In this document: positions 1 to 12,877 of the stretch, one piece after another
Layout: each line of letters opens with the position of its first letter
Position numbering within the stretch: the first letter of the stretch is position 1
DNA from: Candidatus Nomurabacteria bacterium
Lineage (GTDB): Bacteria; Patescibacteriota; Minisyncoccia; Phycocordibacterales; UBA5272
Assembly (NCBI GenBank): GCA_028286645.1
Contig: JAQBRF010000004.1
Location: 205,192 to 269,191, forward strand
Length of the DNA: 64,000 nt
Reading direction: 5' to 3'
The notes under the pieces: model-generated
Databases searched by the model: none
The model's input: the letters and a program-made list of their open reading frames with translations, nothing else
Told to the model about the DNA's origin: nothing
Made by a program: the position numbers and the translations under genes

Positions 1-52
1 TCTCTACATATCTCCGACTTGAAAGATGTCTCGCGAAATTTGGAGTGTCTAT

Positions 53-82
53 GACCGGTTGCGAGACCGGTCTTTTTATTGC
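53..82 (+). terminator. intrinsic terminator-like hairpin
   Basis: GACCGGT-tgcga-gACCGGTC stem followed by TTTTTATT. Confidence 0.4.
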
Positions 83-180
83 ATAACCTAATCGTCTGAA
101 TTTGTAAAATATGGTAGTATTATGCTACAAAGTTTCAGGTTTCCAGTTTAAGTTTCAAGAATTTTTCTCTGCGCCCCTTC

Positions 181-210
181 TAGAAACTAATAACTAGAAA
201 CTAACAACTA
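181..210 (+). repeat. tandem direct repeat upstream of tRNA-Gln
   Basis: ctagaaactaataa / ctagaaactaacaa, two adjacent copies. Confidence 0.4.
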
Positions 211-216
211 GTGTAT

Positions 217-287
217 TGGGGTGTCGTCTAATGGTAGGACATCAGGTTTTGGTCCTGAGTATCGAGGTTCGAGTCCTTGCACCCCAG
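217..287 (+). tRNA. tRNA-Gln (anticodon TTG)
   Basis: Cloverleaf by hand. Acceptor tggggtg/cacccca has the U1:A72 pair typical of bacterial tRNA-Gln, and the discriminator is G. Anticodon stem tcagg/cctga with loop ttTTGgt. T-loop is ttcgagt. CCA is not encoded. Confidence 0.85.
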
Positions 288-374
288 CAAGTTTTCTAAA
301 TCAGCTTTTTTACTTGTTTTAGCAATCAAAGAATACATATTCCCCCACATGCGGGGAAAGGTTGCTTAAATACG

Positions 375-1322
375 TTAATTTTCATATAGCTGTGTGTCTA
401 AACCTCTCTTTCTTATTTCATCTATGAATAAATTGCTGTTTATGACCTTAAAAGCCACTCCAGGACGTACAAAGGTATTCTTATGGGGTTTCTTGCCTGT
501 GACTTTTCTTCTCTTACTCCACGACCTTTTTTGAGCTTCAAACCATCTTTTTAATGGCCTCATTTGTTTTTTAAGTTGCCTGATATCTTCCATGTTTCCA
601 TAGAACTTCTTAATGGTGCAATTTAGTAAATTGCGAGAAGACCCCCAGAATCTACCAACATTTTGATATTCAAGAGGAACAAGTTTTTGATCTTGTTTGC
701 TAAGATAATTTGCAAAGTATTTTGCCATCCTATCTTTACTTCTTATTTTCTCTACATGTACACCTCTTTTAAGATGTTTTATATCTCCAGATGCAACAAT
801 CTTAAACCACATTTTAGATAGTTCTTCTATTTTAATTTCCTTGTTAATAAGCATATGAAAATGCGGAGCTCCTCTTCCTTGAAACTCTAAAACCCAAATG
901 AATTTATATCCATAATAATTTAACCTCATTCTAAGTTTATGAAAGTGCTTTTTTACAATAAGACCATCATTGGGGAACTCTTTAGGATATGTAAGGCCTA
1001 CTTCATAAGCCATTACATCTCCTGCATTTCTTAGTAAGAATCTTAAGCGCTTAATTGAACCAAAGGAAAACTTTCTTATATTACCTCTAGCCTTTCTTTT
1101 AAAATTTCTAGGCATGAAATTATTACTTGAAACATGAAAATCTTTAGGAAAGACTTTTACTGTTAATACATTTTCATCATCTCTATTTTTTGGTATCCAT
1201 TTTTGGATAATCTGATCTTTTTCATCAACTTCATACACCCTCCCTAAGCGAGTTAGGTAGCTCTTCTTTTTTATTATCATCAGTTTGTAGAAACTCAATG
1301 AAAGAACCATGAAGATCAGCAA
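375..1322 (-). CDS. rolling-circle replication initiator / HUH endonuclease (superfamily I Rep, Rep_trans/phage-Rep-like)
   Basis: 315-aa ORF with an HUH motif (GAPHFHMLIN) and a downstream two-tyrosine motif AKYFANYLSK (Y-x3-Y-x3-K), as in phiX/microvirus-type and pT181-type Reps and ICE NicK relaxases. Start is uncertain; an alternative Met lies 14 codons in. Confidence 0.6.
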   Translation of the reverse strand: MLIFMVLSLSFYKLMIIKKKSYLTRLGRVYEVDEKDQIIQKWIPKNRDDENVLTVKVFPKDFHVSSNNFMPRNFKRKARGNIRKFSFGSIKRLRFLLRNAGDVMAYEVGLTYPKEFPNDGLIVKKHFHKLRMRLNYYGYKFIWVLEFQGRGAPHFHMLINKEIKIEELSKMWFKIVASGDIKHLKRGVHVEKIRSKDRMAKYFANYLSKQDQKLVPLEYQNVGRFWGSSRNLLNCTIKKFYGNMEDIRQLKKQMRPLKRWFEAQKRSWSKRRKVTGKKPHKNTFVRPGVAFKVINSNLFIDEIRKRGLDTQLYEN

Positions 1323-1431
1323 GAGAGTCTAAATACTCTATTGCTGTGTCATGGGAAATATCTTGTTGATACTTTTCTTTGAAGTATCTAACAATCCTTT
1401 CAATTAAGGTTGTGGGGTATTGAAATTCCAC
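1231..1431 (-). CDS. small hypothetical protein upstream of rep, overlapping it
   Basis: 66-aa ORF on the same strand, overlapping the Rep ORF 5' end by about 90 nt. Could be a separate small gene or a result of Rep start mis-assignment. Confidence 0.25.
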   Translation of the reverse strand: MEFQYPTTLIERIVRYFKEKYQQDISHDTAIEYLDSLADLHGSFIEFLQTDDNKKEELPNSLREGV

Positions 1432-1561
1432 CTAATTAGTAATTAGGTACAGAAAGATTTGTTATGCAAAAGAAATAACCACTTTAATGGTTATTTCTTT
1501 ATTTTGGACACATTTATTTGAGTATGTATTAGTAATCCCTGCTCATTAGGGATTTATTATT

Positions 1562-1765
1562 ATGGTTACCAGAGCCTTTGATGTATTTTTTTATATATTG
1601 TTGCGGAGTGTTATGTATTTCGGCTTTCCGCTTTTTACTGGATTTATATTATTTAGAGCTTATTCGTGTCTCTACATCAAAGGGCTTTTTGTACTATCTC
1701 TAGTAGTACACTCATTTTTCCATGGTGTCAATTACCAAAAAACGATGGTAGAGCTCTCTAAATAA
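1562..1765 (+). CDS. small hydrophobic hypothetical protein
   Basis: 67-aa ORF, mostly hydrophobic. Confidence 0.2.
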   Translation: MVTRAFDVFFYILLRSVMYFGFPLFTGFILFRAYSCLYIKGLFVLSLVVHSFFHGVNYQKTMVELSK

Positions 1766-1783
1766 GAGTAAAATTATAACAAT

Positions 1784-2353
1784 ATGTCAAAAATACCACC
1801 AGAAAAGCTAGCTAATTTTAAGATATACAGAGATCATATAAATAAAATTGGTAACTCAATGCCGATGATTTTTCAAACTCTAGGGAAAAATATTCATAGT
1901 ACACAGAAATATAGATTTATACTTACCATAATTATGGGTACTGAGGTTATTAAAATTAAATTGAGAGGTCTAATTATATTAGATGATTATATTAATGAAC
2001 TGAGATGGTACTTAGAAAAGTTTGGGAACTATGAAATTAAAAAAATGAATGAGTACGCTTTAAAAAGTTATGGTCAAACTTTAAATGAGTTTAATGAAAG
2101 GTATAATCTAGAGAAAAATGATAATAATCTATATAAAAAGTTGTACAATCTTAATAAAAGACGCAACGATACAGTACATAATGCTGTAATAAAATATGAA
2201 GGTGATATACAAAAGGCTGATGAAGAGATAAGACCTTATATATTAACTCAGGCATTAGATGATATTCAAAAAACATTAACTAACATGATTAATTTAAGGG
2301 CTGCAACTCTAGGCGAAGTAGAAAAAGAATTAAGAGAAAAAGGGCTATTTTAA
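1784..2353 (+). CDS. hypothetical protein with HEPN-like Rx5H motif
   Basis: 189 aa, predicted all-alpha. Contains NKRRNDTVHN (R-x5-H) in the C-terminal half, as in HEPN/Abi proteins. Motif-level only. Confidence 0.35.
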   Translation: MSKIPPEKLANFKIYRDHINKIGNSMPMIFQTLGKNIHSTQKYRFILTIIMGTEVIKIKLRGLIILDDYINELRWYLEKFGNYEIKKMNEYALKSYGQTLNEFNERYNLEKNDNNLYKKLYNLNKRRNDTVHNAVIKYEGDIQKADEEIRPYILTQALDDIQKTLTNMINLRAATLGEVEKELREKGLF

Positions 2354-2404
2354 TTATAAAAAAATGAGTCTGCTAAGCCAATTTCTAAAACTTAAAGAGT
2401 ATTA

Positions 2405-2440
2405 ATTGACTGTTTAATTAATCAAGCATAGAATCCACAG
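2405..2440 (+). promoter_or_regulatory. sigma70-like promoter for the 2442 gene
   Basis: TTGACT-N17-TAGAAT immediately upstream of the ATG at 2442. Confidence 0.4.
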
Positions 2441-2441
2441 A

Positions 2442-3062
2442 ATGACAGCTGAAGCAATAATTGTTCAACAAATAGTTGACATAAACAACTTTCTAAAGTT
2501 ACTTGTTTCAGAGTCTTATCAAAGTTGGTGGATAAATCACGGACTAGAATTTTTTGGAATACTAGTTACAGTATTTATAAGCATAAGATTACATTTTATG
2601 TCAAAAAGGCTTTCAGCTAAAGATAAGTTCGAACATGAAAAAGAAATAATGAAAGAAATTTCTAAAATACCTCTCTATCAAAGCATTGTTTTATCAGATG
2701 TAAAAAAATATACACCATTTCGTACTGACTATTCCAATCAGACTTATTATAAACAAGGTGCGGAATTATATACATGTATCCCAGAATTTGGTGTTCAGGT
2801 TATATTAATGCCCAGAAATAATGATGAAATCCCTGTAGGCTTAATACCTTTTGATTGGATAGAGATAATTCGTGAACATGATAGTGAAGATAATAAACCA
2901 ATAATTGTTTGTAAATTTAAAGGGGTTAGATGGCATAAAAATTTTAAATCACCTTTTAAAGAAATAAATTATCTCTTTAAGAACAATGATTACCAAGAAG
3001 GCCATGACCCGAAGTTTTTAATGTACACGACGGTTCGAAACTCTACGGGGACTAATAATTGA
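2442..3062 (+). CDS. hypothetical membrane-anchored protein
   Basis: 206-aa ORF with one predicted TM helix (FFGILVTVFISIRLHF). Confidence 0.4.
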   Translation: MTAEAIIVQQIVDINNFLKLLVSESYQSWWINHGLEFFGILVTVFISIRLHFMSKRLSAKDKFEHEKEIMKEISKIPLYQSIVLSDVKKYTPFRTDYSNQTYYKQGAELYTCIPEFGVQVILMPRNNDEIPVGLIPFDWIEIIREHDSEDNKPIIVCKFKGVRWHKNFKSPFKEINYLFKNNDYQEGHDPKFLMYTTVRNSTGTNN

Positions 3063-3158
3063 AATTGACAAAAATAGTGCCTTACCCTCATTAGGTTAAT
3101 CTAGAGATTATTAACTATTTCTAGTCAGATATCATTCTATAATGCTAGGCGGAATAGC

Positions 3159-3186
3159 TTGACATATTGCTAAAGTGTGCTATACT
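3159..3186 (+). promoter_or_regulatory. consensus sigma70 promoter with extended -10
   Basis: TTGACA(3159-3164)-N16-tgcTATACT(3181-3186). Confidence 0.55.
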
Positions 3187-3237
3187 CAGGTCAGTAACTG
3201 AATTGGCACATTGTTGTATTCCACCAGGAGAGTTGAA

Positions 3238-3543
3238 ATGAAAATCAAAGACAAGATGGCGAAAGCACTCTTCGATCGCGGTCTTTTCGAAGAACAAGCT
3301 GAAGCAGTGCTGAAGCAGTACGTCGAAAGCGATCTCGGCAAAGAGATGGCAAACCGCATGGAGGACGACGAGTCGGACTACCCTCCAACCATGATGACGA
3401 TCGTGGGGATGGGCGTGAAGCAGACGGCACTCGAGTGGATCGATGCGAACTGTCCGAAACACTGGGCACGTCCGCTATTCATGGACGCACCTGCGGACTT
3501 CCAGCAAGCCTTGAAGGGAGCCGAAACTCCATCCAACAAGTAA
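3238..3543 (+). CDS. hypothetical small protein in a GC-rich insert
   Basis: RBS aggagag then ATG at 3238 (MKIKDKMAKALF...). GC-rich codons. Own promoter and terminator. The ORF track starts at an upstream TTG at 3211. Confidence 0.55.
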   Translation: MKIKDKMAKALFDRGLFEEQAEAVLKQYVESDLGKEMANRMEDDESDYPPTMMTIVGMGVKQTALEWIDANCPKHWARPLFMDAPADFQQALKGAETPSNK

Positions 3544-3548
3544 TCAAC

Positions 3549-3592
3549 CCCGCTCGACAGACACCGCGTCTGCTCGAGCGGTTTCTTTTTAT
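3549..3592 (+). terminator. intrinsic terminator
   Basis: cgctcgacagac...gtctgctcgagcg hairpin followed by tttcttttt. Confidence 0.6.
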
Positions 3593-3661
3593 ATAAAAGT
3601 ATGAATATTTATTCTGTGACGTAATAATTCCGTTCGGATATCGTCCCACAATGCCAGCTAG

Positions 3662-3690
3662 TTGACAGCTATACAGTTATATGTTATAAC
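3662..3690 (+). promoter_or_regulatory. consensus sigma70 promoter
   Basis: TTGACA(3662-3667)-N17-TATAAC(3685-3690), then RBS gggaggtg. Confidence 0.55.
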
Positions 3691-3739
3691 GCCACTTAAG
3701 ATGGCATTTTCGCCATATTAACCTGATGGGAGGTGTAGC

Positions 3740-4159
3740 ATGCACCGTTTACTGATTGTTGTGATTATGGGTGCTCTTATGGGTTGCGGCGACAAGCTGA
3801 CACCCACCGAAGAGCAGGTGAAGAAAGTGGAGATCTGGGAAAAGGAACTAAGGCAAGCCCCAGCCTACTCCCTGATCGAATTCACCGTCGATGTACCCAT
3901 TCCCGCGCACGGAGGTACCACACGCTTCGCGCTCCTCTGCACGCAGATCCGTGGCGACAAAGAGCTCGTGTACGCGCTCGTAAGTCATCACACTTACTGC
4001 GGAAACGCATCCCGCGTGAGTATCAGGGAAACGGCGGAGAAGATGAAGGAACTCACTCTTCCCCAGGAGCCAAACTACAATATAAGGCTTCCGATGGTGA
4101 TCAAAGACGCAATCGGACTGGAGGCGTGGCTGAAAGGTCATTCCGAAGCCTACAAGTAG
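3740..4159 (+). CDS. putative lipoprotein
   Basis: Signal peptide with lipobox (LMGC). GC-rich. Terminator follows. Confidence 0.55.
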   Translation: MHRLLIVVIMGALMGCGDKLTPTEEQVKKVEIWEKELRQAPAYSLIEFTVDVPIPAHGGTTRFALLCTQIRGDKELVYALVSHHTYCGNASRVSIRETAEKMKELTLPQEPNYNIRLPMVIKDAIGLEAWLKGHSEAYK

Positions 4160-4169
4160 AACAACAAGC

Positions 4170-4206
4170 GACCTCAACCAATAGAAGTTGAGGCGTTTTC
4201 TTTTAT
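4170..4206 (+). terminator. intrinsic terminator
   Basis: cctcaac-caatagaa-gttgagg stem followed by cgttttctttt. Confidence 0.6.
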
Positions 4207-4211
4207 CAAAA

Positions 4212-4245
4212 AGGTTCCAATAGCGTCACCTAAAGGTACTGCTAA
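4212..4245 (+). repeat. 34-bp direct repeat, copy 1
   Basis: aggttccaatagcgtcacctaaaggtactgctaa, identical to the copy at 4842-4875; lies 20 nt upstream of the ATG at 4265. Confidence 0.8.
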
Positions 4246-4264
4246 AGTTTGATACAATTAAATA

Positions 4265-4843
4265 ATGTCAGATAAATGGAAAGAATATTTTGAGAAAACC
4301 AAAGATGCAAAGCCTAGATCTTTGCTTGTAAAGGCACAGGAGCTGGTTAAACAAAAAAATAACGCTCTTGATCTTGGTTCTGGAGCACTTAATGATGTAA
4401 GATATCTTTTATCTTTAGATTTTAAACATATAGTTGCTGTAGATAAAACCTCTATTGAAAAAGATATTCTAGAACACTTTCTGTCTCCTAGACTATCGTA
4501 TGTAATTTCTAGATTTGAAGATTTCACTTTTGTAGAAAATAACTTTGACCTTATAAATGCTCAGTACTCTTTACCTTTTATACAGAAGAAAGATTTTGAT
4601 AAAGTTTTTAAGGAAATTGTAAATTCATTAAAAATTGGGGGTATTTTCACTGGTCAGTTATTTGGAACAAAAGATGGATGGAATACAGATAGATTAGATA
4701 TGACTTTTCATACCGCAGATGAAGCCAAAAAGTTATTCTCAGGAATAAAGCTTATTGAATTCAGAGAAGAGGAAAATGACAAGCCTACAGCTTTGGGAGA
4801 ACCTAAACATTGGCATGTATTTCACTTTATTGCTGAAAAATAG
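4265..4843 (+). CDS. class I SAM-dependent methyltransferase (TehB-like small MTase)
   Basis: Motif I LDLGSGALND, post-I acidic residue, FDLINAQYSLPF. Confidence 0.6.
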   Translation: MSDKWKEYFEKTKDAKPRSLLVKAQELVKQKNNALDLGSGALNDVRYLLSLDFKHIVAVDKTSIEKDILEHFLSPRLSYVISRFEDFTFVENNFDLINAQYSLPFIQKKDFDKVFKEIVNSLKIGGIFTGQLFGTKDGWNTDRLDMTFHTADEAKKLFSGIKLIEFREEENDKPTALGEPKHWHVFHFIAEK

Positions 4844-4875
4844 GTTCCAATAGCGTCACCTAAAGGTACTGCTAA
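4842..4875 (+). repeat. 34-bp direct repeat, copy 2
   Basis: Identical 34-mer to copy 1. Downstream gattacaattt..ATG resembles the gatacaatt..ATG after copy 1. Confidence 0.8.
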
Positions 4876-4906
4876 TTTTAACAAATTGATTACAATTTAA
4901 AAAATT

Positions 4907-5337
4907 ATGGAGCCCACAGCCCCAGTCGCCTATATTTTTAAAGAGCACGCAGGTGCAACTATAGAAAATAAAGCGTCCTGTAACACAGTAGTGCGGTAGG
5001 ATAGGTTGTTCACCCACGATAGTTATGTTGGTATACTAAAAACATATGGAACAAAGTCCGATAAGTAATCAAGAACTAAACAGAGCCCCAAAACATTCTC
5101 AAATGGTGATAATGCAAAATCTTTTATACTAGCTTTTTGGAAAGCTGTAGCTCCAGATATTGAAAAAAGGTTAGAAAAAAACCGCTAGAGAATTATATGG
5201 GTGAACGTACTTGGGGTAAGGATCGCGTTATCTTGAATGAAGAAGATGGGGTATATACCCTCACTATTTATTCAAATAGCAATGATAATACTTTATCTCA
5301 AAAAGCTGTTGAGTTTTTAAAAACTAGAGTTTAGGTA
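4907..5337 (+). pseudogene. decayed gene fragments between cassette repeats
   Basis: Only short broken ORFs here: about 30, 28 and 45 aa (MGERTWGKDRVILNEEDGVYTLTIYSNSNDN...). No intact gene in 560 bp of an otherwise tightly packed region. Confidence 0.3.
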
Positions 5338-5350
5338 TTTATGTAAATTT

Positions 5351-5378
5351 GTTCCAACAGCGTCATTTAAGGGACTCC
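5351..5378 (+). repeat. degenerate third copy of the 34-bp repeat
   Basis: gttccaaCagcgtcaTttaaGGgactcc versus gttccaatagcgtcacctaaaggtactgc; lies upstream of the gene at 5462. Confidence 0.45.
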
Positions 5379-5461
5379 AATTTCTTATAGAATAAAATAT
5401 TTTTAAAATATTAAAAATTAGAAAGCTAGAATGTATGCATTAAAAATGGTACTGTGAATGT

Positions 5462-6031
5462 ATGAGAAAACTCGTATTGTTCTTACATCAATCACTCGAT
5501 GGATATTGCGCCACTAAGGACGGCGGATTGGACTGGATTCCATATAACGAAGCATTTGAAAAATATGCAGAAAAGATGGTGCAAACTGTAGGCTTGCCTT
5601 TGTATGGACGAGTGACGTATGAAATGATGAAAAGTTATTGGCCAACAGCACTCAACAATCCATCAGCATCAAAACATGATCAAGAACATGCCGCATGGAT
5701 TGAAAATGTCGAGAAAATTGTATTCTCCACTACCCTCATAAAAGAAGATTGGCATAACACACGAGTGATAAGTAGCAACGTAGAAGAAGAAGTAAAAAAG
5801 CTTAAAGAAGGAGAAGGAAAAGATTTAGTAATTTTTGGCAGCCCAACTCTTGCTCGTTCACTTATGAAAATGAATCTTATTGACGAATTTAATTTTACCG
5901 TAAGCCCTGTCATATTAGGAGACGGCCTAACTTTTATTAGAGGTATTGAGGAGAGAGTCAATCTTGAGCTCATCAGTTCTGAACAAATTGAAGGTGGAAT
6001 AGTTGCGCTTCACTATAAAGTTGTAAGGTAG
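5462..6031 (+). CDS. dihydrofolate reductase family protein (RibD C-terminal domain type)
   Basis: MRKLVLFLHQSLDGYCATKDGGLDWI... is typical of YwjB/RibD_C DHFR-like proteins. Confidence 0.6.
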   Translation: MRKLVLFLHQSLDGYCATKDGGLDWIPYNEAFEKYAEKMVQTVGLPLYGRVTYEMMKSYWPTALNNPSASKHDQEHAAWIENVEKIVFSTTLIKEDWHNTRVISSNVEEEVKKLKEGEGKDLVIFGSPTLARSLMKMNLIDEFNFTVSPVILGDGLTFIRGIEERVNLELISSEQIEGGIVALHYKVVR

Positions 6032-6065
6032 ATAGTTAAAAAGTTTATATAATACAATTATATTT

Positions 6066-6494
6066 ATGACAACAATAAACCCTTGGATTAATTTTAATGG
6101 CAACGCAGAAGATGCGTTTAACTTTTATAAATCTGTTTTTGGTGGAGAGTTTGGAAATGTGATTCGCTTCAAAGATCTTGCGGGTCCCAACTTCCCCGTT
6201 TCTGAAAAAGACGAGAACAAAATTATGCAGATTACTTTGCGTCTTGATAATGGAAATATGTTAATAGGAAATGATGTACCGGAATTTATGGGAAAAGTAA
6301 ATGAGCAGGAAAATAGAAGCAAAATTCACATAGGCGTAGATAGCAAAGAAAAAGCTGAAAAAATATTTAACGAACTTTCTCTCGGAGGGCAAGTAGCTGG
6401 ACCAATTGGTGATAGTCCCTGGGGAACATACGGTGGAATGTTTCGAGACAAATACGGCATCGAATGGATTGTGGAATTTAATGCGAATAAATAA
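6066..6494 (+). CDS. VOC/PhnB-like protein (3-demethylubiquinone-9 3-methyltransferase-like fold)
   Basis: N-terminus INPWINFNGNAEDAFNFYKSVFGG and ~140 aa length. Confidence 0.55.
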   Translation: MTTINPWINFNGNAEDAFNFYKSVFGGEFGNVIRFKDLAGPNFPVSEKDENKIMQITLRLDNGNMLIGNDVPEFMGKVNEQENRSKIHIGVDSKEKAEKIFNELSLGGQVAGPIGDSPWGTYGGMFRDKYGIEWIVEFNANK

Positions 6495-6536
6495 AGTAAA
6501 TAGACTTTATCGTTTTCCTGCAACTTCAATAAAACA

Positions 6537-6884
6537 ATGAAAAAAGAAAATCTGTACGCCACAAGCTTCTCTAAGGTTTATCCATATTATATTGCGAAAG
6601 CGGAGAGGAAAGGGCGTACGAAGGCTGAAGTAGACGAAATCATACGCTGGCTTACTGGGTACACTCACAAGCAATTTGAAAAGCATTTATCGATGGGAAC
6701 TAATTTTGAGAATTTTTATATGAAAGCCAAGAAACTTAATCCCAAAAGGAAATTGATTAAAGGAATGGTTTGCGGTATTCGAGTGGAAGAAATCAAAGAT
6801 CCGATTATGCGTGAAATCCGTCATTTAGATAAATTAATTGATGAATTGGCGAAAGGAAAGACAATGGATAATATTTTGCCCTAA
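6537..6884 (+). CDS. DUF2200-family protein
   Basis: 115 aa with ...[31 protein letters not shown]... pattern of DUF2200. Confidence 0.45.
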
Positions 6885-6903
6885 GATACAAACCTGAATC
6901 CGC

Positions 6904-7380
6904 CTATCCCCTTCTTGCTGCTTCAATAGCAGCTACATCTATTTTCTTCATTTTCATCATTGCTTCAAAAGCACGCTTTGCTTCATCTCCACCAGAAGCC
7001 ATGGCTTCCGTTAGCGTACGCGGAGTGATCTGCCATGAAATCCCCCATTTATCTTGACACCAACCGCACTGGCTCTCCTTTCCGCCATTTCCAACTATCG
7101 CATTCCAGTAACGATCTGTTTCTTCCTGGTCCTCAGTTGCAATCTGAAAGGAAAATGCTTGAGTCCGCTCAAAGTGAGGCCCTCCATTAACACCAACACA
7201 CGGAATTCCGCAAACATTAAATTCTACAGTAAGAACATTACCCTCTTTTCCATCTGGATAATCACTGGGCGCATTATGAATAGCGGTTACAGAGCTTTCA
7301 GGAAAAGTAGCTGCGTAAAAGCTAGCCGCACCTTCGGCATCTTTATCGAACATAAGACAAACTGTATTTTTTGGTATCAT
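6904..7380 (-). CDS. VOC/PhnB-like protein, second copy, higher GC
   Basis: SFYAATFPESSV...VEFNVCGIPCVGVNGGPHF...QCGWCQDKWGISWQI, PhnB/YjdN-like. Confidence 0.55.
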   Translation of the reverse strand: MIPKNTVCLMFDKDAEGAASFYAATFPESSVTAIHNAPSDYPDGKEGNVLTVEFNVCGIPCVGVNGGPHFERTQAFSFQIATEDQEETDRYWNAIVGNGGKESQCGWCQDKWGISWQITPRTLTEAMASGGDEAKRAFEAMMKMKKIDVAAIEAARRG

Positions 7381-7593
7381 ATTTTTGTGTAGTTTATTTT
7401 ACCAAATCTTTCCATATAGTAGAAATAGTACTATTTAAATAAACTCTTACTAACTCCGCTCGTATTTTTTAGTATAATTGATTTTATATTAAGGTTAATT
7501 TCCAATCCTGTTCTTGAGATGAAATGAGTCGAATAGATCCACTCAATCTAGGAAATTAGCAGCCAATATCCCCTATTGTGTTAAAATTAGACC

Positions 7594-7893
7594 ATGAATA
7601 AAACATTTACTGTCATATTAAATTTTTCTGATCATCTTATCGGAATTGAGCAGTATGAAAAAGGATCGCCTATAGAGGCATTAAAGGAATTCATAACCTC
7701 AGCAGAGGCTCTTAATGGATATGATCGTGAGCTTTTAACTGAATCTATAATGCCGCTTCTGCAAGGTGCAAAATATAAAGGGGTGTGGATGTTTCATTTT
7801 AAGCCTGAGTTAGATCTTTCGGGCGAAGATGATAATCAAGTTCTGGGTGGTACGATAGTCCAGACTGATCCAGAGGCCTTAACTAGAACTTAA
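7594..7893 (+). CDS. hypothetical protein
   Basis: 99-aa ORF, no recognisable motif. Confidence 0.35.
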   Translation: MNKTFTVILNFSDHLIGIEQYEKGSPIEALKEFITSAEALNGYDRELLTESIMPLLQGAKYKGVWMFHFKPELDLSGEDDNQVLGGTIVQTDPEALTRT

Positions 7894-7987
7894 ATTTAAA
7901 AATTTTAACTTATATGACTTTTAATTTATCTTTCTTTATGTTCCAAAATATCCCCCGGCTGGCAATCAAGAACCCTACAATATTTAT

Positions 7988-8257
7988 ATGAAAAACAACA
8001 TTTTTATTCGTCCTGTTATTGTAACTGCCATTATTTTGGTTATACCCTTATTAGCAAGATTTCCTTGGACATTGAGTGACTTTATAATTATGGGTGCTCT
8101 CATTTTGGTGGTGGGTCTTATATGGGAGACAATTTTAAGGAAAGTAAAAGATAGTATGAAACGCATTTATTTCATCGCATTGCTTGTGGTTGTATTTATT
8201 CTTGTTTGGGCAGAACTTGCAGTAGGAATATTCGGATCCCCTTTTGCTGGAAGCTAA
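7988..8257 (+). CDS. small membrane protein
   Basis: 89 aa with three hydrophobic helices. Confidence 0.4.
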   Translation: MKNNIFIRPVIVTAIILVIPLLARFPWTLSDFIIMGALILVVGLIWETILRKVKDSMKRIYFIALLVVVFILVWAELAVGIFGSPFAGS

Positions 8258-8393
8258 GATAAAAGGATAGTCCATGAGTCTTAATATAGTTTAATCTTCC
8301 TCGTCAGATTTACCAGATGCTTTAAATATAGCATTACCTAATTTCTTAATTTATACACTAAATAGACGATGATCTGTATGCTATAGTTCCTCT

Positions 8394-9164
8394 ATGAATG
8401 AAATATTTAGCTTCATCTCTCACTATATTTATGTTTATATCTGGGTTATATTTACGACCTTTATAAATATAATTGCTCCGGTGTCGGGGTCCGCTGTTGT
8501 AACTCCGGTCATTGCTTATGCTACTTCTCCGCAAAGAGCCGTTGGAATAGCTGCCTTCTTGTTTTTTCTTTCGGCAATCCACCGTATACATATGTTTAGA
8601 AAAAATATTCTTTCAGAAAAGAAAAATATTGACATAATTAAACATCTTCTGCCCTTTTCTATTGTCGGAGCAGTGGCGGGGGGATTCTTTGTGGCTTATG
8701 TAAATACGAAAGTTTTAGCAATCATAATCGTAGTCGTATCTTTATACTACATATTTAGAACACTTGTTGTTTTATACAAAAAGAACAATGAACAGAAAAA
8801 AACAAATAAATACGGAGGAATATTTATAGGTATTCTATCTGGATTCATGCAGGGCTCTGGTATGTCTGGAGGTGATATACGAGCAAATTATTTAAGATCT
8901 ATTGTCTCAGAAGTGAATGTGCGGGCAGTTAGCAGCGTCGTGGGGCTGGTTAATTTCTTTATCGCAGGAAGTATTTTGTTTTTACACAATAAGCTTACGA
9001 GGTTTGATATAATCTTTGTTATAAGTATATTCCCTTTTATTATTCTTGCGCAACTTTATGGAAAAAAGTTCTTGGATAAAATGAAAGACAGAAATGCAAA
9101 GATTTTAGCTATATGCTTATCAATATTTGGAATCGTGCTTCTTACTTATAAATACTTATTATGA
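8394..9164 (+). CDS. TauE/SafE-like permease family membrane protein
   Basis: Polytopic membrane protein with two Gly-rich repeats (PVSGSAVVTP.., GILSGFMQGSGMSGG). Start uncertain. Confidence 0.45.
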   Translation: MNEIFSFISHYIYVYIWVIFTTFINIIAPVSGSAVVTPVIAYATSPQRAVGIAAFLFFLSAIHRIHMFRKNILSEKKNIDIIKHLLPFSIVGAVAGGFFVAYVNTKVLAIIIVVVSLYYIFRTLVVLYKKNNEQKKTNKYGGIFIGILSGFMQGSGMSGGDIRANYLRSIVSEVNVRAVSSVVGLVNFFIAGSILFLHNKLTRFDIIFVISIFPFIILAQLYGKKFLDKMKDRNAKILAICLSIFGIVLLTYKYLL

Positions 9165-9688
9165 TTACTATAATCTTTGAGGCTCATGGAACAACTTACG
9201 ATAACGAGCAGCATTTATCTTCTGGGTGGAATGATGTTGAGCTTTCAGAACGAGGAATAGAACAATCAAAAGAACTGGGCGAGCGTTATAAAGATGATCA
9301 ATTTGATGCTATTTTTACATCAGATTTAAAACGCGCATACGATACTGCAGAAATAGCTTTTGAAGACAGGTTCAAAATAATTACAGATGAAAGACTTAGA
9401 GAATGTAATTATGGAGACTTTACCCAACAGCCTAGTGAGATTGTGGATGTGGAAAAACCAAGAAGGATTTATGACAGATTTCCAAATGGGGAAAGCTATG
9501 AAGAAACAACTATTCGCATGAAAGAATTTTTAGAAGAGCTTCGTGAAAATTATAGTGGAAAGAAAATAATGATAATTGGCCATAGAGCTACCCAATATGG
9601 ATTAGATTATTTGATAAAAGGAATCTCGCTGGAAGAGCTTGCTTCCACTCCATTTAAATGGCAGCCGGGGTGGGAATATAATTTTTAA
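9161..9688 (+). CDS. histidine phosphatase (phosphoglycerate mutase) family protein
   Basis: IFEAHGTTYDNEQHLSSGWND.LSERG....ELGERY; 4-nt overlap with the upstream gene. Confidence 0.55.
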   Translation: MITIIFEAHGTTYDNEQHLSSGWNDVELSERGIEQSKELGERYKDDQFDAIFTSDLKRAYDTAEIAFEDRFKIITDERLRECNYGDFTQQPSEIVDVEKPRRIYDRFPNGESYEETTIRMKEFLEELRENYSGKKIMIIGHRATQYGLDYLIKGISLEELASTPFKWQPGWEYNF

Positions 9689-9718
9689 TCTTTAAAAGAT
9701 TGATTCACTTTTTAATAT

Positions 9719-10120
9719 ATGAAAATCATTCATAAAATCGCAGCTGTTGTTATACAAGATAATAAGTTTCTTATGGTTAGAAAGAAAGGTAAGGACATAT
9801 GGACGAGTCTAGGCGGTCATCCTGAGGAAGGAGAAACAGAAGAACAAGCTCTTATCCGAGAAACAAATGAAGAGATGGGATGTTCGGCTAAAGTGATTAA
9901 AAAAATAGGAGACTTTGAAGCTCCCGCAGTTTTTGATGATGCGATGGTGAGGCTATCTACTTACCTAGTAGAGTTAGAGGGAGATATAATTTTTGAAGAT
10001 CCAGAATTAGAAGAATATAAGTTTTTAAGCAAAGAAGAAGTAAATAATGTGAAGTTGCCAGATTCAATAACCAAGCAAATTATTCCCTACTGCATAAAAA
10101 ATGGTTTGCTAATGTGGTAA
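9719..10120 (+). CDS. NUDIX hydrolase
   Basis: Nudix box GGHPEEGETEEQALIRETNEEMG. Confidence 0.75.
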   Translation: MKIIHKIAAVVIQDNKFLMVRKKGKDIWTSLGGHPEEGETEEQALIRETNEEMGCSAKVIKKIGDFEAPAVFDDAMVRLSTYLVELEGDIIFEDPELEEYKFLSKEEVNNVKLPDSITKQIIPYCIKNGLLMW

Positions 10121-10185
10121 TGTTATTCCTTAAATTGAGATATTTAGATAAAAAATGCGACGCTTTCGCGCCGCAACTCCATCAT

Positions 10186-11022
10186 TTACTTTCTTGCAGT
10201 GAGATATCCGAGCTCTGGATTATTTATGTAATCTTTCCAGAATTCTTCTCCGAAAAGGCTTAGGCCCTCTTCGGAAACGATTGGCCGGTGCCATTGTACC
10301 TCCGGGAACCCTACCTCCCTCAGCTGTTTTTCGATTGTGTCTGCTGTATAGTAAACAGCAGACAATGTGCAGATTTCCTCCTCTTCGTTGTACAGAGTAA
10401 TGCGTAAAACACCCTCATCCACCGACCCGCCCGGCACATACTTCATTGCCCCGAACCTTTTGAGATTCGTGTCGTTAGGAAGGTCGACAAGCAGTATAAC
10501 TTTTCCACCCTCCGACAAGCTGGTATATAGTTGGCGGAAAAGCTGGCGAAGTATGGGAGTGGTACGCGCGTAATTTGTCACAAACGGAATGACGATGACA
10601 TCTGCCGACGGAAGATTGTCGACAAAGACATCCTTCAATATGTACTCAATCCGTGGGTGGCGTGAGACTTTGGCAGCAAGCGCAAGCTGAGCTTGTGAGT
10701 TGTCGATTCCGTACACACGTCTTGCATTAAGTCCGGCAAGTGGAACCGTAAAGAACCCATCCCCACACCCGACATCAAGGACAACTCGATCTTCGCAATC
10801 GCCGACTAGCTTGAGCACGGTCGGCAACATAGAGTATTGCTTGTCAGGTTTGATATTTGACTTCTTGTAGGTCACTGCTAGCAAGTCGTAGTTGTTCAAT
10901 CCACGACTTGCACCGAAGAAGAAGCCATCAAGCCATGCTACGAATCCACCATTTTTCGCAAGCGCCCACCTCCAGAACAGATAGGCGATGGCATTCCGAC
11001 GTCCTGGGATACAAATAATCAC
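10186..11022 (-). CDS. class I SAM-dependent methyltransferase (GC-rich insert)
   Basis: Motif I VLDVGCGDGFFTVPLA, then DNS.., Rossmann-fold MTase. Locally about 50% GC. Confidence 0.6.
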   Translation of the reverse strand: MIICIPGRRNAIAYLFWRWALAKNGGFVAWLDGFFFGASRGLNNYDLLAVTYKKSNIKPDKQYSMLPTVLKLVGDCEDRVVLDVGCGDGFFTVPLAGLNARRVYGIDNSQAQLALAAKVSRHPRIEYILKDVFVDNLPSADVIVIPFVTNYARTTPILRQLFRQLYTSLSEGGKVILLVDLPNDTNLKRFGAMKYVPGGSVDEGVLRITLYNEEEEICTLSAVYYTADTIEKQLREVGFPEVQWHRPIVSEEGLSLFGEEFWKDYINNPELGYLTARK

Positions 11023-11116
11023 GGGAGCCCCCTGTCGTTATGTTGTGGTCTAATCCTAAACTACCATAGAATTTATTATCGTCCAGGATAACCAATAAAC
11101 TTGATATACTTAGTGC

Positions 11117-11656
11117 ATGAAAAATGCAATCATCTTACATGGAACCGGTACCCTCAATTCTGATTTTTGGTTTCCGTATATAAAGGAAAACTTGAAAGTA
11201 AAAGGATACGAAGTGTGGCTCCCTCAACTTCCAAATGCAGATGTGCCTAACTTAGAAGAGTGGCTGCCGTTTGTATTAAGACAAGGAAAGTTTTTAGAGG
11301 AAACAGTTATAATTGGGCATTCTGCGGGATCGCAATTAATTTTAAATATTTTAGAAAAAATTGACGTAAAGATTAAGAAAGCAATTTTGGTTTCGGGGTA
11401 TGCAGAATCATTGCGTGAAAGTGAGATATCAGAAAATAAGCCTGAACTTGATTGGGAGGGAATAAAAGAACACGCAGAAGAGTTCATATTTATAAATTCA
11501 GACAATGATCCTTGGGGCTGTAATGACAAGCAAGGGAAGATTATGCAAGATAAGTTAGGTGGAAAATTAATAATTCTTAAAGGTGAGGGCCACATGGGAT
11601 CCGCAACTTATAATCAGCCGTATAAAGAATTTCCTTTGATTGCAGAATTAATATAA
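11117..11656 (+). CDS. alpha/beta hydrolase, YdeN/RBBP9-like serine hydrolase
   Basis: ILHGTG.....WF...L...G, nucleophile elbow GHSAG, ~180 aa. Confidence 0.55.
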   Translation: MKNAIILHGTGTLNSDFWFPYIKENLKVKGYEVWLPQLPNADVPNLEEWLPFVLRQGKFLEETVIIGHSAGSQLILNILEKIDVKIKKAILVSGYAESLRESEISENKPELDWEGIKEHAEEFIFINSDNDPWGCNDKQGKIMQDKLGGKLIILKGEGHMGSATYNQPYKEFPLIAELI

Positions 11657-11688
11657 AAAACGCGCCCCATATTTTGGGCGCTTAAAAT
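11655..11688. terminator. bidirectional intrinsic terminator
   Basis: aaaaaa-cgcgcccc-atatttt-gggcgc-ttaaaat between convergent genes. Confidence 0.55.
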
Positions 11689-12035
11689 GGAACATCGATG
11701 TCTTCGTAGTCGTTAAGGTCTCCTGAATCGTCCTCTACCACAGTCTTGAGCTCTGTTCGGGGTTCAATACCAACCGACCCATCCAAGTATCGGACAAGTA
11801 CTTGGGTGGTGACGAGCTTGTAGCTTGTCGCAAGAAAGCTTTCTTCTTCCTGGACGTCTGCCATCTCTTCGTAAGGACAAACAGGTTGCGCGTGCCTGCG
11901 AAGGACATCTAGCTTTCCCGTGTTAAACCTGTTTACCTGTCGTGCGTAAACTGTTCCTTGCATAATCTGTGTTCCACACAGGTCGCAGTAATACGGCTTT
12001 CTTGCCTTTTTTATATATCCCCAAACAAAATCCAT
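11682..12035 (-). CDS. hypothetical Cys-containing protein (GC-rich insert)
   Basis: 117 aa, YYCDLCGT...C..C suggests a zinc-ribbon-like N-terminus and an acidic C-terminus. Confidence 0.4.
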   Translation of the reverse strand: MDFVWGYIKKARKPYYCDLCGTQIMQGTVYARQVNRFNTGKLDVLRRHAQPVCPYEEMADVQEEESFLATSYKLVTTQVLVRYLDGSVGIEPRTELKTVVEDDSGDLNDYEDIDVPF

Positions 12036-12151
12036 GGGCCATCTCCAAGAACTTAATCATTTAATCTTAGCTTATTAAACAAATAAATAAAAGATGGACT
12101 GCTCATGTATAGGCTAATATTTCATACAATTACTCTGTTATACTCAGCTTA

Positions 12152-12877
12152 ATGAAAACACCTGAATTTGGTCAACAAACACAAATTGAGACACCTGTTG
12201 TACCTGAATTAAGTCATTTAAAGAATCCCGCAGATGCCATTATGCTTTGTATAGATTCACCGGATGATATTACCGAAGAGACTATTAATAAGGTGAAAAT
12301 GATAACTAGGAATGGGGAAAATATTGATTTCTTTAAAAAGACAGCTGCCATCGTTTCCGAAGTGAACGATCAGGATAAATATTCACGAGAATATAGAAAT
12401 TGTACTGGGACTATTGTTGTGGGAAGATCAAGCGCTGATCCCACAAAAAACATTTCTCTCCTTTCACATCAAATGCCTTATGAGCTTTATGTAAGAGATA
12501 GTTTTATTGCAGAACTTAAGAAAAAAATAGAAAAGCTTAAAATGGATTCTACTCTCGGGACTATTGATGCCATAATAATCGGAGGGAATGAACTTAATGA
12601 TGAATTTAGGGAGTATACAGATTCGATTATAGACTTAAATAAAATTATTAAAGATTCTTTGGGATTTGATGCTATCGTGGCCATAGGGCCGAATATCTCA
12701 CCACGTGGTGATAGGACAGGAGTAAATACAAATATATATTTTGATAATTCTAATCGTAGGCTTTATGTTATTAGAGCGGAACAGCCAGAAAATATCACCA
12801 ATAAAAGCTTTGCACCAGAGGATATAGAAAAAGAAAAAGAGGAGTGGACAAAAAGCCTAGAAAAGTCTAAAAAATAA
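12152..12877 (+). CDS. hypothetical protein
   Basis: 241 aa, Rossmann-like alternation (GTIVVGRSSADP...IDAIIIGGNE); no confident family. Confidence 0.35.
   Translation: MKTPEFGQQTQIETPVVPELSHLKNPADAIMLCIDSPDDITEETINKVKMITRNGENIDFFKKTAAIVSEVNDQDKYSREYRNCTGTIVVGRSSADPTKNISLLSHQMPYELYVRDSFIAELKKKIEKLKMDSTLGTIDAIIIGGNELNDEFREYTDSIIDLNKIIKDSLGFDAIVAIGPNISPRGDRTGVNTNIYFDNSNRRLYVIRAEQPENITNKSFAPEDIEKEKEEWTKSLEKSKK

Follow-up and report, generated by a model that had tools for sequence, protein, structure and literature searches.

A probable immobilised member of a family of small integrative rolling-circle replicons beside a tRNA-Gln gene of Candidatus Nomurabacteria

Abstract

A short island beside a tRNA-Gln gene of Candidatus Nomurabacteria is probably an immobilised copy of a family of small integrative rolling-circle replicons of the Patescibacteria (CPR). 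The original prediction, that the tRNA gene adjoins what is left of an integrated rolling-circle replicon, is thereby supported. The locus has led to a coherent family at 16 independent loci, in which a compact rolling-circle replicon is joined to a large serine recombinase (LSR) directed at the final bases of a tRNA gene, without virion or conjugation genes.

Background

Described mobile elements of the Patescibacteria are few and, to our knowledge, so are genetic tools for these organisms. Should members of the present family be active, they would provide a replicon native to these organisms together with an integrase whose attB is defined, a combination testable as a Patescibacteria vector. 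The family may also help to explain the mosaic accessory islands found beside tRNA genes in very small genomes, comparable with those attributed to tycheposons. Literature searches returned no description of CPR elements that pair a replication initiator with a serine recombinase; as integrative replicons, however, they represent a variation on an established type. The copy described here would represent an ordinary outcome for such an element, in which deletion of the integrase trapped it and fixed a HEPN-type gene and a membrane-protein gene in the chromosome.

Results and discussion

The locus

The window, that is, the whole 64-kb stretch of DNA that was analysed, comes from a Candidatus Nomurabacteria (Patescibacteria/CPR) metagenome-assembled genome (MAG). 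The features of the island are as follows.

217-288, plus strand: tRNA-Gln (UUG; anticodon TTG), from ARAGORN and Rfam (RF00005, 60 bits)
231-341, minus strand: 3'-terminal remnant of an LSR gene, from tblastn and fixed-register comparison
340-359, minus strand: terminator-like hairpin TTTCCCCGCATGTGGGGGAA just 3' of the Rep stop, from a terminator scan
375-1280, minus strand: HUH rolling-circle replication initiator (Rep), 301 aa, from PF23343, PHROG 3419 and invariant catalytic residues
984-998, minus strand: Rep motif I, GLTYP, from the family alignment
855-863, minus strand: Rep HUH motif (H-F-H), from the family alignment
696-719, minus strand: Rep motif Y-x3-Y-x2-K, from the family alignment
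1231-1431, minus strand: orf66, a small conserved protein gene of the element core, from tblastn
1432-1735, minus strand: conserved structured non-coding leader upstream of orf66, from blocks conserved in six loci
TTGACA at 1726-1731, minus strand: promoter-like box of the leader (TTGACA, 17 nt, TACTAC), from conserved blocks
about 1690-1710, minus strand: leader hairpin TGTACTA-N7-TAGTACA
within 1432-1735, minus strand: long-range stem of the leader, AGCCCTTTGATG/CATCAAAGGCT
about 1465-1498, minus strand: 13-bp leader hairpin, then a T-run
about 1429-1447, minus strand: leader palindrome CCTAATTA..TAATTAGG
1562-1765, plus strand: mechanically called 67-aa ORF (orf67) inside the leader
1784-2353, plus strand: cargo gene 1, HEPN-like all-alpha protein, 189 aa, putative RNase
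2162-2179, plus strand: R127-N-D-T-V-H132 motif of the 189-aa protein
2442-3062, plus strand: cargo gene 2, membrane-anchored protein, 206 aa

A Rep gene beside tRNA-Gln, accompanied by a pair of cargo genes and with no integrase gene in 217-3062, had been predicted, and all of this was borne out. The distance from the Rep stop (375) to the tRNA 3' end (288) is 86 nt; the adjacency stands, and the earlier figure of 88 nt is corrected. The tRNA-Gln gene at 217-288 is intact, is the sole match in an Rfam scan of positions 1-5000, and shares 97% identity with its counterpart in relative L002, a tRNA-Gln gene abutting the recombinase gene. The GC content of 289-3100 is 0.303, versus 0.378 for the window.

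A rolling-circle initiator of the PF23343 family

The Rep ORF of 315 aa spans 375-1322 on the minus strand. Its start is likely the ATG at 1280, giving 301 aa, because M15 of the ORF is the invariant first residue across 19 homologues and because a separate gene call also gives 301 aa. The protein matches Pfam PF23343 (REP_ORF2-G2P) with an E-value of 6.6e-13 (49.2 bits; GA cutoff 27.8) and PHROG 3419, 'rolling circle DNA replication initiation', with an E-value of 1.2e-13; PF23343 is found in all but one of its 105 homologues. Invariant throughout a 19-sequence alignment are L110-T-Y-P113 in motif I, H154 and H156 of PHFHML in motif II, and Y202, Y206 and K209 of AKYFANYLSK in motif III. With three motifs and a PF23343 match above threshold, the earlier call of an HUH rolling-circle Rep is confirmed. 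Its placement among Rep families has changed: Pfam Rep_trans (PF02486), expected of the pT181/NicK type to which it had been compared, is absent even at E<=1, and no Pfam or PHROG family of the likewise proposed phiX/microvirus VP4 type was returned. The protein is best assigned to PF23343, the inovirus/plectrovirus ORF2/G2P type. A sequence search of the PDB with the Rep profile gave marginal HUH matches alone (Helraiser, E 0.01; CRESS Reps). Likeness to the phiX174/Microviridae gpA type is limited to the Y-x3-Y spacing.

Distant relatives of the Rep lie on circular contigs of 1.4-7.6 kb, and the wider Rep family therefore runs autonomous small replicons. No free circular form of a CPR-clade member was seen; by analogy with their Rep family, plasmid-type replication of the CPR-clade elements may be supposed.

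The remnant of a large serine recombinase gene

Between the Rep gene and the tRNA lies the end of an LSR gene. Its last 37 codons, ending ...NMYSLIAKTSKKADLENLLGCKDSNLDTQDQNLMSYH with the stop at 228-230, are preserved, of which 231-288 overlaps the tRNA antisense while 289-341 is element DNA and constitutes the P' arm of attL. In a tblastn comparison, residues 481-517 of the L085 recombinase aligned to window 341->231 with 75.7% identity (E 2.7e-11). When the two were compared ungapped and in fixed register, 33 of 47 nt were identical (shuffle mean 14.2 +/- 3.0; 0 of 20000 shuffles), and the corresponding figure for L001, L002, L004, L084 and L089 was 27-28 of 47 nt. Local alignment separately found the same homologous position in L001, L004 and L085. 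Reading frame and register to the tRNA junction are both preserved in the remnant.

Beyond these 37 codons, no intact LSR gene (Resolvase plus Recombinase domains) is present at the locus. The register of the surviving codons indicates that DNA has been lost inside the element: an internal deletion of about 1.5 kb appears to have taken the LSR promoter and some 480 codons. The deletion junction, at about 341-345, coincides with the 3' edge of the terminator-like hairpin of the Rep gene. The motif TTTCCCCGC(A/C)TGTGGG that follows the Rep stop is conserved in L085 and L089, and a recombinase-promoter-like box, CTTGACTnTATAGTCATATCTGAAGAA, that comes after it in five relatives is missing from the window. 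Decay of the element had been suspected from the outset, and it takes the form of this deletion; the window copy is the sole deleted example among 17 loci.

The other possibility raised with the original prediction was integration by the Rep itself; the element would then have entered beside the tRNA in an IS91/Helitron-like or AAV-like manner, with an integrase never needed. HUH enzymes can catalyse integration in other systems, and the region lacks an integrase gene, as such a history would have it. We nevertheless regard this as extremely unlikely: the remnant of a recombinase gene lies precisely at the junction, an LSR is present in every CPR relative, and the junction point is identical to that of the LSR-bearing elements.

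That the missing integrase might be an artefact of assembly was considered and rejected. Logan contig L093 (run SRR13312974), a separate assembly, matches window 250-4241 at 100%, including the tRNA-to-Rep junction, and the junction is therefore not an artefact of the MAG assembly. An artefact is also disfavoured by the in-frame remnant itself, which has diverged from its relatives by about 30%, as has the rest of the element. The deleted form is known from one sample, the Logan contig being consistent with the same sample as the MAG. An exact-match metagenome search with the upstream flank of the window, seeking an empty site in a sibling strain, gave no match.

The attachment site and the ends of the element

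The sequence shared by the relatives runs as far as ...TGCTG, at the discriminator/trailer end of the tRNA; directly beyond this point the sequences diverge. As expected of an attL junction, the window reads ...TTGCTG followed directly by the GGG of the tRNA, and its register matches that of L001, L002 and L085. From the point at which six elements diverge we infer a crossover at the discriminator/3'-trailer end of the tRNA. The tRNA-Gln gene is the attachment target on the host side, the B arm of attL; the last LSR codons are the element arm of the site, and the tRNA is left undisrupted.

A crossover at the last tRNA bases would duplicate only a few bases, so that a long att repeat is not expected and the missing repeat, previously read as a sign of decay, loses that meaning. 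No other copy of the 3' 24-mer of tRNA-Gln occurs in the window at up to 3 mismatches, and neither blastn-short nor a regular-expression search for tRNA-like arms found a direct repeat of the tRNA-Gln 3' end. At the distal end (attR), no tRNA-like arm or repeat was found. The element may end near 3.1 kb, where GC content jumps, or at a 38-nt repeat at 4208-4245; with attR not found, its size and full cargo list are uncertain.

A family of elements in CPR relatives

The order orf66, Rep, LSR is conserved in all 16 independent CPR relatives, the LSR gene beginning 51-265 nt downstream of Rep in each of them. In 13 of the 16, the LSR 3' end overlaps (antisense) or adjoins a tRNA, which may be Gln, Ser, Val or Arg. 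Gene calls or ORF listings give LSR lengths of 481-534 aa, apart from one of 387 aa in L010; in that locus a direct repeat of about 175 nt bounds an element of about 6.7 kb. Where both ends could be placed (two loci), intact elements measure about 4.5-7 kb. Read inward from the tRNA, their layout is tRNA, LSR, HUH Rep, orf66, structured leader and cargo genes, with the LSR gene running towards the tRNA and terminating antisense within it. Variations include L002, which carries two LSR elements at the same tRNA, and L004, where a 700-nt insert separates the LSR end from the tRNA. The cargo consists of one to a few unrelated genes, none of them shared among the 17 loci. As to whether the gene order is simply core synteny, the orf66-Rep-recombinase-tRNA arrangement is indeed conserved, as a mobile core found at different tRNAs, and the cargo is not.

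These loci also bear on the proposal that an inovirus-like (filamentous ssDNA phage) prophage left its remnant in the window. The two share PF23343, a family named for the inovirus/plectrovirus type; the best phage-database match to the Rep is an 'Inoviridae sp.' record (31.8% identity), and distant relatives occur on 29 IMG/VR contigs, mostly of 4-10 kb. In Roux et al. 2019 (PMC6813254) the reported hosts of inoviruses include CPR, and their integration genes include serine recombinases, by which some inoviruses integrate. Against this, neither the window nor the 64 cargo ORFs of the 16 relatives yielded a Zot/pI-like morphogenesis ATPase, coat module or other virion family, although small coat proteins would escape such searches; FtsK/Tra, capsid, relaxase and T4SS families were equally missing from those ORFs. 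The only gene families common to the loci are orf66, Rep and LSR, the cargo being fully variable, and several elements are too short, since housekeeping genes lie within 4.5 kb. A prophage origin is, in our estimation, highly unlikely, and the integrative replicon is retained as the preferred reading.

orf66 and its structured leader

orf66 overlaps the start of Rep by about 50 nt and, by tblastn, lies directly upstream of Rep in all CPR relatives; in L002 it also adjoins the second recombinase, which is without a Rep. Profile searches against Pfam and the PDB returned noise alone beyond DUF2164, which matched 6 of 13 members below threshold (best E 0.006). A putative role as a regulator or recombination directionality factor is suggested.

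Upstream of orf66, the leader at 1432-1735 is predicted to fold as single-stranded DNA with an energy of -34.8 kcal/mol (z = -5.3 versus shuffles). Its hairpin and long-range stem recur in L002, and it matches no Rfam family. A CTTTGAT-type sequence adjoins a hairpin within it. The leader may serve as a regulatory region and/or replication origin. The overlapping orf67 is probably not a gene: no homologue exists in any related locus, and it is also uncalled in L093.

Mobility, past and present

Knowledge of the protein families suggests how an intact element would behave. The LSR would insert the circle and, with a directionality factor, excise it, while the Rep would nick the origin, possibly within the leader, and drive rolling-circle replication of the excised circle. 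In the window copy, the deletion has joined LSR codon ~481 to the terminator hairpin of the Rep gene; what remains intact is attL (the tRNA together with some 50 nt of element arm), along with Rep, orf66, leader and cargo. Having lost its LSR gene, the element would be unable to excise by itself and is probably immobilised, now a fixed island.

A different fate is conceivable, in which the element is non-autonomous yet mobile, much as a satellite within its family: a related element in the same cell or population would supply the LSR that excises and re-integrates it in trans, provided that attR is intact, and its own Rep would replicate it. About 50 nt of element arm beside the crossover, roughly what an LSR half-site needs, escaped the deletion, as did the tRNA arm, Rep, orf66 and leader, and the tandem and mini-insertions at one tRNA in L002 and L004 would fit such traffic. 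However, no cognate LSR is encoded in the window. Its only LSR, at tRNA-Ala, targets another tRNA and is 27-31% identical to those of the relatives in the conserved N-terminal ~265-430 residues. With attR not located and a single deleted example among the 17 loci, we consider mobility in trans unlikely. Similarly doubtful, taken as a whole, is a broader proposal that joins it to three others: that orf66-Rep-LSR elements are natural self-replicating, site-integrating vectors of Patescibacteria, that the att site lies in the LSR 3' end, and that orf66 acts in directionality or copy control. With the att site so placed, integration would swap the C-terminal tail of the LSR for residues antisense to the tRNA.

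Cargo genes

The 189-aa protein had been described as HEPN-like, and the description holds. It is predicted to be all-alpha and to adopt the four-helix-bundle HEPN fold, and its R-(N/V)-x3-H motif is conserved in all seven full-length family members. HEPN_RiboL-PSP (PF18735) is matched by 3 of 8 homologues (best E 3.4e-5), and single homologues match HEPN_Cthe2314 and HEPN_Apea. The resemblance to HEPN RNase toxins and RiboL-PSP-HEPN proteins thus lies in the all-alpha prediction, the R-x4-6-H motif and the homologues' PF18735 matches; unlike these, the window protein itself stays below every Pfam threshold and has no adjoining MNT antitoxin or L-PSP partner. The name of PF18735 is borne out at one homologue locus, L124, where a Ribonuc_L-PSP gene comes next.

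The 206-aa protein combines an N-terminal hydrophobic helix with a small beta-rich domain, and its family is very conserved and unnamed. Its one hydrophobic segment (aa 35-53; Kyte-Doolittle 1.75) is conserved across the family, and a fold search was uninformative, the long N-terminal helix dominating. The notion of a small restriction enzyme, suggested by its position after an EcoRI-like methylase in L128, was rejected because every member has the N-terminal membrane helix and other contexts lack a methylase.

The two genes lie 88 nt apart, with a promoter-like site between them. They had been taken for an abortive-infection pair, an idea that fails on their distribution: the partners are never neighbours at the 2 loci of HEPN homologues or at 10 loci of the 206-aa family. 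The latter family is widely transferred and unrelated to the HEPN-type cargo protein. PADLOC gave no match for any of the six proteins; most plausibly, both cargo genes would be of a defence or addiction type.

Comparison with known integrative elements

The AICEs (pSAM2-like) are similarly small tRNA-integrated elements that pair a site-specific recombinase with a rolling-circle Rep and that replicate once excised. Their integrase is of the tyrosine type, acting with Xis, and their Tra protein is FtsK-like, whereas the CPR family has an LSR and no Tra/FtsK or other transfer gene. The window Rep differs too, scoring 21.7 bits against RepSA (PF20199), below the cutoff of 34; some homologues are annotated RepSA. 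A review describes AICEs as conjugative elements.

Streptococcal integrative and mobilizable elements are likewise small, integrated and cargo-bearing, and bring together a serine recombinase and an HUH/RCR-initiator-like protein. Their relaxases are of the Rep_trans or other families, and a conjugative helper is needed; in contrast, the window Rep has no Rep_trans match and no helper system is evident. RCR-type relaxases together with serine recombinases are described for these streptococcal elements (PMC5357655, PMC5704250).

In the streamlined genomes of Prochlorococcus, tycheposons pile up and degenerate into tRNA-linked islands of accessory genes, and the same study describes fragmented integrases as remnants (bioRxiv 10.1101/2020.12.28.424599). 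A lineage-specific tyrosine recombinase is present in 910 of 937 of those elements, which measure 10-20 kb, carry primase/helicase/polymerase replication genes and leave partial tRNA copies (bioRxiv 10.1101/2020.12.28.424599). The window resembles them as a decayed element followed by a mosaic accessory island; the CPR elements differ in being smaller, in relying on an LSR and an HUH Rep, and in leaving almost no tRNA duplication.

Gene content of the window element

The locus beside tRNA-Gln is probably a small integrative replicon of the rolling-circle type, in a copy that has become immobilised. Five observations carry this reading: a conserved gene architecture among relatives, the point of the tRNA junction, a remnant of a large serine recombinase (LSR), a Rep gene that has kept its motifs and variable cargo. 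The features concerned are as follows.

Features of the element (window coordinates)
217-288 (+): tRNA-Gln(UUG), by ARAGORN and Rfam
231-341 (-): last LSR codons, reaching from the Rep-tRNA spacer antisense into tRNA-Gln
375-1322 (-): Rep ORF; start ATG at 1280 (M15, the family-wide first residue), 301 aa
1231-1431 (-): orf66, 66 aa, overlapping the Rep start (ORF listing)
1784-2353 (+): 189-aa ORF, HEPN-like cargo protein (ORF listing)
2442-3062 (+): 206-aa ORF, membrane-anchored cargo protein (ORF listing)

The Rep matches Pfam PF23343 (REP_ORF2-G2P) with 49.2 bits against a cutoff of 27.8, and secondly PHROG 3419, 'rolling circle DNA replication initiation'. All three rolling-circle motifs (L110-T-Y-P113, H154-x-H156 and Y202-x3-Y206-x2-K209) are invariant in an alignment of 19 homologues; judged from its sequence, the gene is intact. 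The interval 217-3062 contains no integrase gene. The original prediction of an HUH Rep beside tRNA-Gln and lacking an integrase is thus borne out by the PF23343 match, the ARAGORN and Rfam calls and the ORF listing, while its likening of the Rep to the Rep_trans or phiX type is not supported, neither profile being returned even at E <= 1. The Rep, 189-aa and 206-aa proteins are 100% identical to JWN37_603, 605 and 606, encoded on a 514-kb contig of a Candidatus Nomurabacteria metagenome-assembled genome. A Logan contig assembled separately from run SRR13312974 is identical to window 250-4241, across the tRNA-to-Rep junction, which is therefore no artefact of binning or assembly.

A conserved arrangement in Patescibacteria

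Nomurabacteria are members of the Patescibacteria (CPR). DNA of relatives was obtained by looking up exact protein matches and by scanning the genomes of species representatives, and Patescibacteria contigs were found to carry Rep homologues of 42-77% identity. In the 16 independent CPR loci for which the available sequence is long enough, the arrangement is always the same: an orf66 homologue lies directly upstream of Rep, and an LSR gene starts 51-265 nt downstream of it on the same strand. These recombinases have Resolvase and Recombinase domains, and by ORF listing or gene call most are 481-534 aa long (387 aa in locus L010). The LSR 3' end overlaps or adjoins an opposite-strand tRNA (Gln, Ser, Val or Arg) in 13 of the 16. 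The L085 and L002 genomes have SNase-YqeY-RmuC-L21 flanks in common. The window shows the same order of tRNA, convergent Rep and orf66, with only 86 nt between the Rep stop and tRNA-Gln. Beyond the CPR clade, Rep and LSR were linked in two loci only.

An all-against-all ORF comparison of 17 loci revealed no further common family besides orf66, Rep and LSR, so the genes upstream of orf66 represent variable cargo. The elements are also short, since housekeeping genes (enolase, HisRS) lie within 4.5 kb of Rep in relatives; in L010 a direct repeat of about 175 nt, including the tRNA-Ser 3' end, bounds about 6.7 kb. A Pfam scan of 64 cargo ORFs of relatives detected no Zot/pI ATPase, FtsK/Tra, capsid, relaxase or secretion-system family. 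The locus might alternatively be the remnant of an inovirus-type prophage, as the Rep family and the work of Roux et al. (2019) suggest, but no virion genes were detected in the 17 loci and this is very improbable.

More distant Rep relatives occur on circular contigs of 1.4-7.6 kb, on 29 IMG/VR contigs (mostly 4-10 kb), in one 'Inoviridae sp.' record and on two small actinobacterial plasmids, which indicates that the wider Rep family drives small autonomous replicons. Circular assembly is evident from identical terminal repeats in L035, L038, L040, L041, L062, L064, L037, L094 and L096; their bins belong to widely differing phyla, and the contigs probably represent ssDNA viruses or small plasmids in free form.

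In another relative, L002, a second LSR element (5888-8158) stands in tandem with the Rep element and has an orf66-like gene (70 aa) together with a 159-aa gene that replaces Rep. An orf66 gene can thus accompany the recombinase where Rep is missing, a hint that the function of orf66 lies in recombination, perhaps as a directionality factor, and not in replication.

Remnant of a recombinase gene

When the window spacer was compared with the Rep-to-tRNA interval of six relatives, local alignment chose the last LSR codons in three, and the score for L085 exceeded that of all shuffles. In reverse complement, the spacer (TATTCTTTGATTGCTAAAACAAGTAAAAAAGCTGATTTAGAAAACTTGCTG followed by GGGTGCAAGG) aligns without gaps, and in register with the tRNA junction, to its L085 counterpart (TATTCTGTTATTGCCAAATCGAGTAAAAATCTCAATTTGGATGAGTTGCTG followed by GGGTACAAGG). 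With the register fixed in this way, 33 of 47 nt agree, whereas shuffled sequences gave 14.2 +/- 3.0 and none of 20000 reached that count; the five other relatives match the window at 27-28 of the 47. The remnant is still an open frame, reading YSLIAKTSKKADLENLLGCKDSNLDTQDQNLMSYH and then stop where L085 has YSVIAKSSKNLNLDELLGYKDSNLDTQDQNLMSYH and then stop, and a tblastn search of the whole window with all relatives' recombinases recovered it (341 to 231) at 75.7% identity and E 2.7e-11. The post-Rep motif TTTCCCCGC(A/C)TGTGGG of L085 and L089 is retained upstream of the remnant, where in the window it makes up a terminator-like hairpin (340-359). Missing from the window is the promoter-like box CTTGACTnTATAGTCATATCTGAAGAA that precedes the LSR gene in five relatives. 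No other fragment of recombinase, Rep or orf66 was detected in the window, save an unrelated LSR at tRNA-Ala.

These sequences are most simply explained if about 1.5 kb was deleted internally, the LSR promoter and some 480 codons being lost and the ends joined near 341-345. As had been proposed, the window copy is a decayed family member, its LSR reduced to a remnant. The other option then offered, integration by the Rep itself, is contradicted by that remnant at the junction and is now scarcely credible. In the intact family, by analogy with LSRs and HUH Reps elsewhere, insertion and excision would be catalysed by the LSR and the excised circle would replicate by a Rep-driven rolling-circle mechanism, orf66 having a putative regulatory or directionality role. 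A related LSR acting in trans might still move the window copy, whose tRNA-Gln/element junction (attL) is complete; with no cognate LSR visible in the window, we consider this unlikely.

Attachment site and element ends

Six elements have sequence in common up to (A/T)TGCTG and then diverge at once, which places the crossover where the tRNA ends, at the discriminator/trailer (...CCCCAGCA). Past this point L001, L002 and L085 continue into tRNA-Gln, L084 and L089 into non-tRNA DNA, and L004 into a degenerate tRNA-like stretch. The tRNA body remains that of the host, and the predicted duplication is a few bases only. No long att repeat was found in the window, as originally noted, but its absence carries no information on decay: it is expected of a crossover at the very end of the tRNA. 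Since the crossover falls inside the 3' end of the LSR ORF, the codons for the last ~20 residues of the enzyme in its integrated form run antisense to the tRNA (LGYKDSNLDTQDQNLMSYH), as read from the recombinase 3' ends of L001, L002 and L085 and from window 228-341. The tail would differ in the excised circle, so that the end of the protein would change with the state of integration.

Two candidates present themselves for the distal end of the window element (attR): a jump in GC from 0.30 to 0.49 at about 3.1 kb, and positions 4208-4245, where a 38-nt repeat has its first copy. The ~33-nt motif GTTCCAAYAGCGTCAYYTAARGGNACT occurs in three direct, intergenic copies (4208-4245, 4838-4875 and 5351-5377), the first two being a 38-nt pair identical at 37 of 38 positions, and the copies flank a 192-aa methyltransferase gene and a segment of about 475 nt. 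Among the loci compared, the motif recurs only in the Logan contig (L093), which is identical to the window and terminates within the first copy. These copies may be cassette or attachment-site junctions and a candidate distal end.

In three relatives the LSR gene does not run into a tRNA. At 9940-10741 of L004, a 700-nt insert with a 214-aa ORF separates the tRNA-like stretch abutted by the LSR from the real tRNA-Gln, while in L084 (12700-12760) and L089 (12600-12660) the LSR gene ends against unrelated DNA; secondary sites, or else tandem or mini-insertions, may account for these cases. In L002 (12773-12964), the 5' end of the tRNA-Gln that bears the element is repeated upstream of it within a ~112-nt tandem unit, once at 12827-12865 (29 nt, with 10 nt of upstream flank) and once at 12939-12964 (26 nt); such copies may be decoy sites or scars left by earlier events.

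Comparison with known elements

The closest kinds of element are pSAM2-type AICEs, integrated inoviruses, streptococcal IMEs with RCR-type relaxases and Prochlorococcus tycheposons. Like the last, the CPR family combines an integrase at a tRNA end, a replication module and cargo decaying into islands. It is set apart from each of them by the use of an LSR in place of a tyrosine integrase and of a PF23343 Rep in place of a primase/helicase or Rep_trans protein, by the lack of a transfer or virion module, and by an attachment site that falls within the 3' end of the recombinase gene itself, where the tRNA ends. No published description of this family was found in the literature searched, whose coverage was incomplete.

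A conserved non-coding region, the putative leader

About 300 nt separate orf66 from the cargo and contain blocks conserved in six loci.

Elements of the leader
promoter-like TTGACA-N17-TACnnn box
~1690-1710: hairpin TGTACTA-N7-TAGTACA, overlapping the promoter-like box
long-range stem AGCCCTTTGATG/CATCAAAGGCT
13-bp hairpin, then a T-run
palindrome CCTAATTA..TAATTAGG at the orf66 start
CTTTGATG block

Folded as single-stranded DNA, the window leader has z = -5.3; it matches no Rfam family. Its CTTTGAT block is similar to the nick sites, of the CTTGATA type, in phiX174 and pC194-class replicons. The region is a candidate leader, origin or both. A 67-aa ORF within it (1562-1765) has no homologue and was not called by an independent gene caller, and so is probably not a gene.

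Cargo and other islands

The 206-aa family is unusually well conserved: its 169 matches, which range from Levybacteria to Bacteroidota, show 50-80% identity, and 26 positions are invariant (window 2442-3062; P0115-P0233). In all members a hydrophobic helix at the N-terminus precedes a small beta-rich domain. The family has no Pfam domain or structural match, the fold search being uninformative. The two cargo genes had been suggested to form an abortive-infection-like pair, a view that is not supported: the partner gene is absent from both HEPN-homologue loci examined (0/2) and from all ten of the 206-aa family (0/10), and PADLOC gave no matches. One HEPN homologue is followed by Ribonuc_L-PSP, and one 206-aa homologue lies between an EcoRI-like methylase and GmrSD_N in an LSR-bounded island. 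A role in defence or addiction is plausible for each gene.

Past the Rep element, small genes for accessory enzymes form a mosaic over 4265-20000 (methyltransferases, RibD_C, VOC/3-dmu-9_3-mt, DUF2200, TauE, His_Phos_1, NUDIX, serine hydrolase, GNAT, UDG, GrpB). DUF2200, 3-dmu-9_3-mt, His_Phos_1, NUDIX and GrpB, with OmdA, also accompany the Rep elements of L001 (1-9400) and L084 (1-7700) in different order; the mosaic looks like a hypervariable island tied to the tRNA-Gln site.

Blocks of ~50% GC in this 30-38% GC genome (3100-4245, ~10250-11000, 11500-12000, 14000-14750 and 18250-19000) point to DNA acquired recently from a donor of high GC. Two small genes lie in the first block: one of 110 aa (3211-3543), with a near-consensus sigma-70 promoter found by scan and a hairpin after it seen by eye, and one of 139 aa (3740-4159), with a TTGACA-N17-TATAAC box seen by eye and a hairpin after it found by scan.

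A second tRNA-linked island, without Rep, occupies 43739-49664. Its 502-aa LSR (43777-45285, -) overlaps 38 nt of tRNA-Ala (43739-43814, +) antisense and is followed by 78-aa and 222-aa ORFs, Vsr, an HpaII restriction enzyme and a C5 cytosine methylase; it shares 27-31% identity with the Rep-element LSRs over the conserved N-terminal ~265-430 residues.
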